From Escherichia phage ESCO13: a stretch of 64,000 nt of DNA. The notes under the pieces were generated by a model. It searched no databases. It saw only the letters and a program-made list of their open reading frames with translations, and was not told the origin of the DNA. Location of the stretch: the sequence record NC_047770.1, one strand, 5' to 3'. Made by a program: the position numbers and the translations under genes. The stretch's first letter is position 1, and each line of letters opens with the position of its first letter. Positions 24,079 through 24,558 of the stretch are shown one piece after another.

Positions 24079-24332
24079 TCTAGCCTCCTAAACGCGTCTC
24101 TGACGCACTTTTTATATATAAGATGATAAATCACCTTACCTAGTAAGTGAACTTGCTCTACGAGCCTCTTATGAAGCTTATGTTATAGGCTATACTATTG
24201 CTACCTGTTTAAGCAAGGTTTTTGCACACAGAAAATAATTTTAATAAAACTCTTGACTTTTGTGTTCGAAGTATGCTACCCTAGAAATCTATTAACGAGC
24301 GCAGCGAGTTAAGGTTTTAGGTTGTTGATGTA

Positions 24333-24364
24333 GTACTCTGTACTCAAGTACTGTACTCCGTACT
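24333..24364. repeat. Five tandem GTACT-containing repeats
   Basis: GTACT at 24333, 24340, 24348, 24353, 24360; inverted AGTACAG copies at 24419-24447 and 24520-24528 flank an AT-rich palindromic core. Confidence 0.6.
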
Positions 24365-24558
24365 AGATTAATAATTATTAAATATTAATAATAAATAATT
24401 ATTAGATCTAACAAACAGGTACAGTGTATCAGAACTGGTACGTACAGATCAACTTCTATCAATTAAAAATAAAATAATAAATTATTATAAATAATACTTG
24501 ATCTATAGATCAGTATGAAGTACAGTACGGAACATCTTAACAAGAATGGAGGTGTGCA

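Follow-up and report, generated by a model that had tools for sequence, protein, structure and literature searches.

The primary origin of phage T7 consists of the promoters phi1.1A/B and an A/T-rich stretch, and the T4 origins oriF (uvsY) and oriG (34) each combine a middle promoter with a downstream DNA unwinding element (DUE). Iteron origins are composed of at least three direct repeats of about 17–22 bp, in helical phasing and beside an initiator gene. Our subject is a 480-bp intergenic gap (positions 24079–24558, without strand) in a 64,000-nucleotide stretch of Escherichia phage ESCO13 (NC_047770.1), the whole of which we call the window. The phage belongs to Phapecoctavirus, phAPEC8-like E. 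coli myophages of about 150 kb within the Stephanstirmvirinae. Its gap contains promoter-like sites, repeats of GTACT, two long A/T tracts and a hairpin with a core of the GCGNAGC class. Such mini-hairpins, GCGNAGC and GCGNNAGC, are listed at the priming origins of G4, St-1 and alpha3, at ssiA of RSF1010 and in the hairpin promoters of N4 (Kimoto and Hirao, PMC13037366).

An original prediction, made from the letters of the window alone, saw in the gap a divergent control region whose repeats and palindromes would form a replication origin or an operator cluster for both flanking operons. The elements are real and the notion of a divergent control region stands, but an operator for both operons finds little support. 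We tentatively favour, at somewhat less than an even chance, a gap that serves as a compound promoter and long structured 5' leader of the rightward transcription unit, with a dispensable GTACT array. The architecture of the gap, its uniqueness, the paralogy of its parts and their evolutionary pattern are read directly from the genomes; we infer that the promoters are active, where transcription starts and what the hairpins might do for the translation, processing or stability of the RNA.

Window positions 23000–26000 match Escherichia phages vB_EcoM-Ro121c4YLVW and ESCO37 at 100% identity and about 60 other Phapecoctavirus genomes at 95–99%. The complete genome of ESCO37 (149,194 bp), a near-identical relative, served as whole-genome reference. 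It is organised in four gene blocks with two divergent and two convergent junctions, the divergent ones lying at 53656–54135 (the gap studied here) and 129178–129294. The open reading frame (ORF) list and the ESCO37 annotation place the borders of the gap at a minus-strand ATG at 24078 and a plus-strand ATG at 24559, in agreement with the length first proposed. We compared the gap across 15 versions from GenBank phages, IMG/VR and metagenomes, including the phiWec179/188 group, proposed as a separate genus (PMC12695924) and here called the sister genus.

Promoters and a repeated promoter-hairpin module

Positions 24123–24290 appear to form a divergent promoter core, in which back-to-back promoter-like sites occupy 24123–24282. 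On the minus strand, a consensus scan detects the promoter-like site PL1 (TTCACT-17-TATCAT, 24123–24151) upstream of the ribosome-binding site (RBS, 24085–24090) of the 107-amino-acid (aa) gene. A second leftward candidate read from the sequence, PL2 (TTGCTT-16-TATAGC, 24189–24216, minus strand), has a counterpart in the homologous position of the sister genus, TTGTGT-16-TATAGT with a TGn. An 18-nt run of A/T only (24232–24249), the fourth longest in the window, separates the back-to-back -35 elements and would occupy the UP-element position of the rightward promoter P1.

P1 (24253–24282, plus strand) was found by pattern search. It consists of a -35 element TTGACT (24253–24258), an 18-nt spacer ending in TGc and a -10 element TACCCT (24277–24282), and its transcription start is predicted at about 24287–24291. 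These features fit a sigma-70 promoter of the extended -10 type, with a -35 near TTGACA, a spacer of 17 ± 1 and TGn before TAnnnT. The consensus scan overlooks P1 because TACCCT matches the -10 consensus at three of six positions. The sister genus and more distant Stephanstirmvirinae contigs also conserve P1, and its layout is found in all of the roughly 12 paralogous and orthologous copies with upstream sequence inspected, two of which carry the variant -35 TTTACT.

A further rightward promoter, P2 (TTGATC-17-TACAGT, 24498–24526, plus strand), can be read near the right end of the gap, so that the proposed divergent control region would hold back-to-back sites and an additional start. The 14-bp palindrome TGATCTATAGATCA (24499–24512), perfect as originally described, covers the -35 and spacer of P2, and the last two GTAC sites (24520 and 24525) overlap its -10. 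Directly upstream of the -35, in UP-element position, lies A/T tract 2 (24461–24496, 36 nt of pure A/T, without strand), identified by ranking of A/T runs and duplex stability and by comparison; the one A/T tract that the sister genus possesses is its homologue. There the P2 site reads TTGACT-18-(TGt)TAGAGT, a canonical promoter, again with the A/T tract directly upstream. The P2 -10 is changed to TACAAT in KKP3954 and BI-EHEC. EP57 has lost it altogether, so that P2 is dispensable. Further to the right, the tRNA region is punctuated by near-identical extended -10 promoters, TTGAC(T/A)-N14-15-TGnTA(A/G)(A/G)NT, at 24741–24769, 25298–25327, 25885–25913 and 27707–27735, the first of which overlaps the stop codon of the 61-aa gene that follows the gap.

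The array, the inverted copies and the palindromes (24326–24535) all lie downstream of P1, inside its leader of about 270 nt, and are therefore badly placed to control both operons. From P1 onwards the order is hairpin, AAGGTTTT repeat, GTACT array, A/T tract 1, AGATCT, inverted GTAC copies, A/T tract 2 and P2. The leader folds better than shuffled sequences (z = -3.5).

P1 and the hairpin that follows it (24292–24312, plus strand; TTAAC-GA-GC-GCA-GC-GA-GTTAA) are the sole part of the gap that is identical between the two genera, with diverging flanks on either side. The core of the hairpin (GCGCAGC) is of the GCGNAGC class and is flanked by tandem G.A pairs, below which the stem covaries from copy to copy. 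In ESCO37 the unit occurs three times, as TTGACTTTT-N-TGnTACCCTA, a short covarying palindrome and then (A)CGAGCG-N1-2-AGCGAGT. Copy 1 is P1 itself (ESCO37 53830, plus strand; window 24253–24312) and heads the tRNA/late block. Copy 2 (ESCO37 127500, minus strand) lies near the head of the replication-gene block, and copy 3 (ESCO37 16150, minus strand) runs antisense to early genes with no ORF downstream. Copy 3 is followed by stems that covary with those of a distant contig, L053, and its product is a candidate non-coding RNA. The three-per-genome arrangement was also recovered in Stephanstirmvirinae-like contigs by a pattern scan of IMG/VR. The module is present in the distant contigs L025, L026, L030, L033, L035, L036, L041 and L053; L035 holds a syntenic P1, with neighbouring proteins 46–77% identical.

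Across the copies, the conserved 13–14-mer folds into a GC-G(N1-2)A-GC mini-hairpin followed by tandem G.A pairs and a lower stem of 3–4 bp. Two G-C pairs close a G(N1-2)A loop with free middle base(s), as is characteristic of this class, whose loop also has a sheared G.A pair. The loops vary (GCA, GATA, GGGA, GAA, GGA and GTA) between flanks that are invariant in 17 instances, and the lower stem pairs over 3–4 bp in 9 of the 17, with different bases. All module hairpins lie on the non-template strand, and the first short palindrome straddles the predicted start site. TTAAC-N11-GTTAA was also considered as a dimer operator and rejected, since its two genome-wide occurrences are about the number expected by chance (roughly two, by a back-of-envelope estimate); it is better explained as the lower stem of the hairpin.

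Nowhere in ESCO37 is TAGAT/ATCTA as dense as in the three leaders behind the modules (20 observed against 2.4 expected), although the motif was found post hoc and a degree of circularity attaches to this ranking. In the other two leaders, stems covary between genera and some pairings take in the RBS, as read from the sequences without formal scoring. These leaders look like instances of RNA-level control, which fits and supports the leader reading of the gap. Antitermination in the phage leaders would be pure speculation.

In the mechanism that we favour, host RNA polymerase with sigma-70 would start at P1 by virtue of its extended -10, near-consensus -35 and upstream A/T run. The transcript would carry the mini-hairpin and then about 230 nt of leader, in which the array and the A/T palindrome are followed by the inverted GTAC copies and P2. 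P2 itself would work with its -35 inside the 14-bp palindrome and with A/T tract 2 in its UP-element position. Of the three modules, one would lead into the tRNA/late block, one into the replication block and one into a non-coding antisense transcript. With the GTACT array and A/T tract 1, the leader would have a lineage-specific elaboration, able to form a long imperfect hairpin, while the exact sequence of the array, and GTAC in particular, would be dispensable.

A pattern resembling the module was also met in Pelagibacter-phage-like contigs (L022:2020–2165 and about 25 similar ones in IMG/VR), where an inverted pair of TACCCTATCCCCCCCAACGAGCGAAGCGAG lies in a divergent gap upstream of terL. 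The terL products are 57–63% identical to those of HTVC023P/027P, and the layout is that of the coliphage module without the sigma-70 -35. These matches are probably unrelated: they amount to a single independent event, a few chance hits are expected by rough estimate, and convergence or chance could account for them.

The GTAC cluster, the A/T tracts and their evolution

The GTACT array (24332–24366, plus strand) reads A GTACTCT GTACTCAA GTACT GTACTCC GTACTAG. As first described, it holds five GTACT within 24333–24364; they start at 24333, 24340, 24348, 24353 and 24360, giving start-to-start distances of 7, 8, 5 and 7. Inverted copies, read without strand, occupy 24418–24447 (GGTACAG at 24418–24424 and GGTACGTACAG), on the far side of A/T tract 1. 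Three inverted copies exist as claimed, but AGTACAG is exact just once (24519–24525), the others being GGTACAG and CGTACAG (24441–24447). Altogether there are five direct and five inverted GTAC units with a consensus of about CYGTACB, of which just six satisfy the stricter CYGTACY. At the frequency of GTAC in the rest of the window, 24326–24535 should hold 0.18 sites; it holds ten, all within 24333–24528 (Poisson P = 7e-15, about 300 windows tested). ESCO37 has no second GTAC cluster, its next densest 250-bp window containing three sites; the motifs are thus unique in the genome and not evenly spread.

This concentration stands against a genome-wide avoidance of the same word. GTAC is the most depleted of the 256 tetranucleotides, with 64 observed and 197 expected in the window and 144 against 454 in ESCO37 (observed-to-expected ratio, O/E, 0.32). 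KKP3954 has an O/E of 0.22, and a 50-kb sample of E. coli K-12 one of 0.90. In the phage, the lowest values after GTAC belong to CCGG and GGCC, a pattern typical of restriction avoidance. The one other GTAC-rich spot of the window, with seven GTAC in 500 bp, lies at 3535–4023 in an rmlB-like gene. It is part of a minus-strand segment (2445–4324, GC about 0.44) encoding rmlA-like (292 aa) and rmlB-like dTDP-glucose 4,6-dehydratase (330 aa) proteins, so judged from the translations and the neighbouring ESCO37 annotation. ESCO37 apparently lacks this segment (the indel measures about 2.2 kb, and ESCO37 has no GTAC cluster at that place). It looks like a recent horizontal acquisition with its GTAC still unpurged.

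A/T tract 1 (24367–24404, without strand) is a near-perfect palindrome with arms at 24369–24386 and 24387–24404. The 12-bp TAATAATTATTA (24369–24380) is a true palindrome within it and extends to the 14-bp TTAATAATTATTAA (24368–24381); the surrounding pure A/T run, proposed as 40 bp, measures 38 nt. Ranked by length, tracts 1 and 2 come first and second among the A/T runs of ESCO37; ranked by stability, they give the two weakest 50-bp duplexes (-45.1 and -46.3 kcal/mol), tract 1 being the extreme in both respects. Both are about 5 standard deviations (sd) from the genome mean of -64.3 kcal/mol (sd 3.8).

Next to tract 1, the palindrome TTAGATCTAA (24402–24411, without strand) contains AGATCT, a Dam site and an overlapping TAGAT/ATCTA pair; sequence reading and comparison show AGATCT and the downstream ACAG to be kept across genera. 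Four GATC fall within 24400–24515, where 0.5 are expected (P = 0.002). Perfect palindromes of at least 14 bp are not in excess in the window (6 against 5.5 ± 2.3 in shuffles), and two of the six lie inside the gap. An apparent tandem duplication of about 103 bp (A/T tract, GATCTA and GTACAGT) was rejected, its score being reached by 136 of 500 and 60 of 1000 shuffles.

Folded as a single strand, the array and the inverted copies form an imperfect 130-nt palindrome, GTTGATG ... GATCAAC (24324–24453, without strand), with a folding energy of -18.6 kcal/mol (z = -3.6). The energy weakens to -12.0 and -14.3 kcal/mol in KKP3954 and BI-EHEC, which break three and two of the predicted pairs respectively, and to about -6 kcal/mol in the sister genus. 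With no compensatory pairs and stability lost in the variants and the sister genus, a conserved hairpin of array and inverted copies was rejected.

Between Phapecoctavirus and phiWec phages, the conserved parts are P1 with its hairpin, AGATCT..ACAG, GATCAAC, one A/T tract and P2. The sister genus is devoid of the GTAC array and A/T tract 1, and has five to six GATC, mostly as AGATCT. Within the genus, AAGGTTTT varies from one to three copies, dw-ec has a 14-bp deletion in the array, nieznany has lost most of A/T tract 2 and two GTAC sites, and tract 2 is expanded in some isolates. At least one A/T tract follows P1 in every relative sampled, and neither tract is present in all of them. The array persists in most of the roughly 60 isolates, but KKP3954 retains 3 of the 10 GTAC sites and BI-EHEC 1 of 10, nearly all losses being GTAC to ATAC or GTAT. 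The two isolates have lost GTAC at different positions, so the losses are at least partly independent.

These losses mirror the rest of the genome. Over 47 kb aligned between ESCO37 and KKP3954, 22 of 43 GTAC sites differ and seven are new in KKP3954. The resulting turnover of 51% compares with a median of 13.6% (sd 4.8%) over all tetranucleotides; the two genomes are 96% identical, and GTAC changes mostly to GTAT or ATAC. Together with the O/E of KKP3954, this turnover indicates continuing, lineage-dependent counter-selection of GTAC in which the array sites are unprotected. Erosion of the array is part of the genome-wide GTAC purge, with nothing specific to the array. Along with the lack of compensatory changes and the absence from the sister genus, it argues against three proposals: that GTACT is a conserved operator, that the secondary structure is conserved, and that the origin would have here a component it cannot do without. 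The operator cluster for both operons is not borne out, with GTACT absent in the sister genus, partly deleted in dw-ec and mutated at 7 of 10 sites in KKP3954 and 9 of 10 in BI-EHEC. The same pattern supports the view that the array is dispensable.

A host-derived or mobile insert was rejected, as none of 5,426 E. coli genomes gave a match. A synteny comparison with the Vequintavirinae by way of the 61-aa protein was uninformative, the Seunavirus homologue lying away from any divergent region.

Alternative readings of the gap

Several points weigh against a compound promoter and leader. Every promoter in the gap is a putative one, recognised by consensus, and no terminator separates P1 from P2. 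The downstream promoters at 24741, 25298, 25885 and 27707 make P1 unneeded for expression, so that it may have another role. The start-straddling palindrome and the G(N)A tri- and tetraloops, which are typical of DNA, suggest a function at the DNA level. A/T tract 1 is in the UP-element position of no promoter, the TAGAT enrichment was found post hoc, and the reading leaves unexplained why ten copies of a purged word persist in most isolates. Several of these observations would suit a transcription-primed origin comparable to the T7 primary origin or T4 oriF/oriG, with the other two modules as secondary origins, a reading that we regard as doubtful though worth serious attention. Transcription from P1 would open the DNA, the displaced non-template strand would fold into one or more stable GCGNAGC mini-hairpins, the A/T tracts would act as unwinding element, the transcript would prime the leading strand, and a T7-like primase-helicase would load on the displaced strand. 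The two least stable duplexes of the genome do follow closely on a strong and conserved promoter (about +80 and +175 relative to P1), a promoter-plus-DUE layout of which at least one tract is found in every sampled relative. The same mini-hairpin class is reported at known priming origins (PMC13037366), and the hairpins lie on the non-template strand in all copies. That the first straddles the predicted start site suits a DNA-level role better than one in RNA. The replisome of ESCO37 is T7-like (primase/helicase, family-A polymerase and single-stranded DNA-binding protein), no initiator is annotated, and P1 is redundant for expression. A local minimum of cumulative GC skew coincides with the gap and its GATC cluster, but skew tracks gene orientation everywhere, switching sign at every change, and its global minimum lies at the other divergent region; the rV5 authors likewise found that skew changes in their phage merely track transcription, and we rejected skew as evidence for an origin. 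Against this origin stand the absence of A/T tract 1 and the array from the sister genus and of tract 2 from nieznany, the simpler explanation of tract 2 as an UP element, and the other two modules, which have no comparable A/T tract and whose leaders resemble structured RNAs. The literature searched on Phapecoctavirus and its relatives yielded no origin, promoter map, transcript 5'-end data or account of the repeat region, and no experimental origin data for any relative, although some GenBank records label part of the gap 'repeat_region'. An iteron origin of the kind used by lambda, phage P1 and theta plasmids does not fit, with units 5–8 bp apart and no initiator-like domain in ten neighbouring proteins. 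We consider it unlikely, and somewhat less probable than the origin itself, that a sigma-70 promoter with non-template mini-hairpin(s), in three copies, is a strand-specific replication-priming signal of the Stephanstirmvirinae, with P1 and its A/T tracts as main origin. Such a signal would be a host-polymerase-driven counterpart of the T7 and T4 origins with hairpins of the G4/ssi type, the GTAC dyad being an origin accessory kept despite restriction pressure.

The persistence of GTAC against genome-wide counter-selection could also point to a binding-site cluster, either for a small phage regulator on heptads of about 7 bp (omega or ribbon-helix-helix type) or for a host factor such as TrpR, serving as operator, as roadblock downstream of P1 or as titrating decoy; we think this distinctly unlikely. 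The five direct and five inverted units do flank an A/T palindrome. In BI-EHEC the sites were removed singly and not by deletion, a hint that length or other bases matter, and the changes concentrate on GTAC positions (9 of 40 against 4 of 294 elsewhere, counted by eye; Fisher P = 1e-6). The 8–9-mers ACTGGTAC and GGTACAGTG are shared by the phage and the E. coli mtr operator, GTACTAGA and GTACTCT by the phage and the aroH and trpR operators, and TAGTACGGAGTA recurs in the P1 leader of a distant relative. However, a TrpR position weight matrix (PWM) built from the trp, mtr, aroH and trpR operators of MG1655 (18-bp near-symmetric GTACTnGTnnACnAGTAC, GNACT units 8 bp apart) gives a best 18-bp site of 9.4 bits, against 15.4–22.3 bits for natural operators left out in turn, and just one unit pair has the 8-bp phasing. 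Canonical TrpR operators were rejected accordingly, a short k-mer resemblance remaining. The best PWM match of the phage, GATCTAGTGTACCAGTAC (13.7 bits, ESCO37 127246–127263), falls in the first gene downstream of module copy 2. Pfam and PHROGs reveal no DNA-binding domain in the neighbouring genes, the motif is absent from the sister genus, and KKP3954 has lost array sites at the genome-wide rate (7 of 10 against 22 of 43). The GTAC enrichment in the P1 leader of the distant relative is weak (3 against 0.66 expected, P = 0.03) and was set aside, GTAC being barely depleted there (O/E 0.79). Equally improbable in our estimate is that the gap has no sequence-specific function, with an array that grew when a 7-mer expanded by slippage and A/T tracts that are slippage-prone low-complexity spacer in a non-coding gap; both would be tolerated where hosts are without GTAC restriction and eroded where they possess it. 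The length changes across the gap (AAGGTTTT in one to three copies, the 14-bp array deletion, expansions and deletions of A/T tract 2), the lack of compensatory substitutions and the independent loss patterns in two isolates agree with it, and the horizontally acquired rml genes illustrate that unpurged GTAC can persist for a while. A direct/inverted dyad around a palindromic centre is unlike simple slippage, however, and neither the retention of the array in most of about 60 isolates, with GTAC the most avoided word, nor the removal of sites in BI-EHEC by point changes where deletion would be easier is expected from it. A packaging signal or genome terminus (a pac site or the edge of a direct terminal repeat) is very improbable indeed. 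The GATC-rich palindromes lie 4.4 kb upstream of terL, their TGATCA/AGATCT-type hexamers resemble the pac site of phage P1, and the nieznany record is broken inside the gap. But the Stephanstirmvirinae have short direct terminal repeats (PMC12210895, PMC12695924), the repeat region of BME3 aligns to ESCO37 at about 148–149.2 kb and 0–1.5 kb, some 55 kb away, and the gap sits 64 kb into the phiWec188 record; with the terminal repeats elsewhere, this possibility was rejected.

Gene setting and comparison with known systems

To the left, the block begins with the 107-aa gene (23755–24078, minus strand) and continues, according to the ESCO37 annotation, with small genes without assigned function and nucleotide-metabolism genes. 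The rightward block comprises the 61-aa gene (24559–24744), at least ten tRNA genes, lysis genes, terL (about 4.4 kb downstream of the gap) and structural genes. The 61-aa gene has its RBS, GGAGG, at 24548–24552 and its ATG at 24559 (24548–24561, plus strand), as located by the ORF list and protein searches. Its product is Cys/His-rich, with a C-x2-HH ... C-x2-C pattern and a very acidic tail, has no Pfam match and belongs to a PHROG family of the function-unknown class. It is kept in the sister genus, and the distant relative L035 has an unrelated acidic 69-aa protein in its place. Pfam and PHROGs assign no function and no DNA-binding or initiator-like domain to the ten proteins flanking the gap.

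A search of 23500–28500 with Rfam 15 (E up to 1) gave no match within 24079–24558. Its credible matches are tRNA or tRNA-like, apart from a few weak sub-threshold ones at 27281–28007. Two tRNA-like matches, at 25923–26009 and 26235–26319 (tRNA-Sec model 35.7 bits, threshold 47; tRNA model 39 bits, threshold 29), are uncalled by ARAGORN and unannotated in ESCO37, and may be degenerate or unusual tRNAs. Further gene-free, very A/T-rich stretches of ESCO37 are located at 135516–136325 and 148900–149194, the second being the terminal-repeat region of BME3.

The host labels of GenBank MG065650.1, MH252123.1, OP562383.1 and OR584014.1 merit caution. Records named Campylobacter phage B15, Klebsiella phage ZCKP1 and Acinetobacter phage ABPW7 are 99–100% identical to the window phage in the compared regions, and Pseudomonas phage PsgM04F has a gap of the type that characterises the E. 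coli phiWec sister group.

Each ingredient is of a known kind (promoters, UP-like tracts, mini-hairpins, restriction avoidance); what is new here is the combination of elements, the three-copy module and the GTAC paradox. The phAPEC8-like phages are widely used as therapy candidates, and our analysis supplies a concrete map of putative promoters and leader together with a testable three-copy module. The gap is also a natural experiment, in which a single non-coding site holds a ten-fold concentration of a restriction-type word undergoing a genome-wide purge. Should the site be an origin or act as a protein sink, mini-hairpin DNA would become connected with sigma-70 promoters or with titration of a host factor. 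Should it be neither, it would illustrate how far non-coding repeats can drift against restriction avoidance.

On the level of repeats, the array is reminiscent of TrpR operators and of arrays bound by small regulators. GTACT corresponds to the GNACT unit, and the phage shares 8–9-mers with mtr and GTACTAGA with aroH. However, the 7/8/5/7 spacing of the phage fails to rebuild the symmetric 18-bp operator, and the PWM scores fall far below those of natural sites. The operators of omega (pSM19035) and other ribbon-helix-helix proteins and arrays of the parC/parS type likewise have units of about 7 bp, direct and inverted, arranged head to tail near promoters. Unlike these, the phage array is irregularly spaced in a lytic phage, with no ribbon-helix-helix or partition gene found nearby and a motif that is unconserved between genera.

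The lambda PL/PR leaders and 5'-terminal stabiliser hairpins resemble the module in that a small hairpin recurs just after the start of several long operons. In both, a long structured leader then precedes the first gene; in lambda it holds nut sites and an RNase III site before N. The present phage differs in that its leaders have no boxA/boxB similarity and no Rfam match, and no N- or Q-like gene was identified in it.

When comparing the gap with the T7 and T4 origins as described in textbooks, the general layout is similar. The most meltable DNA of the genome begins within about 100 bp of a promoter, the phage has a T7-like replisome with no recognisable initiator gene, and the site precedes a block with promoters of its own. 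In the gap, however, the promoter is of the host sigma-70 type, the A/T tracts are unconserved as a set with one in UP position, and the likeness is one of sequence only.

A structural similarity also exists with the mini-hairpin DNA systems. They share the GC-G(N1-2)A-GC core with its free middle base, its strand specificity and its position at a start site of RNA synthesis, which in the gap is a predicted one. Unlike N4, the window phage encodes no N4-like RNA polymerase, and its hairpin is placed 10–14 nt downstream of a double-stranded sigma-70 -10 element. The phage version is further distinguished by its extension with tandem G.A pairs and a covarying lower stem, and by its presence in three copies per genome.

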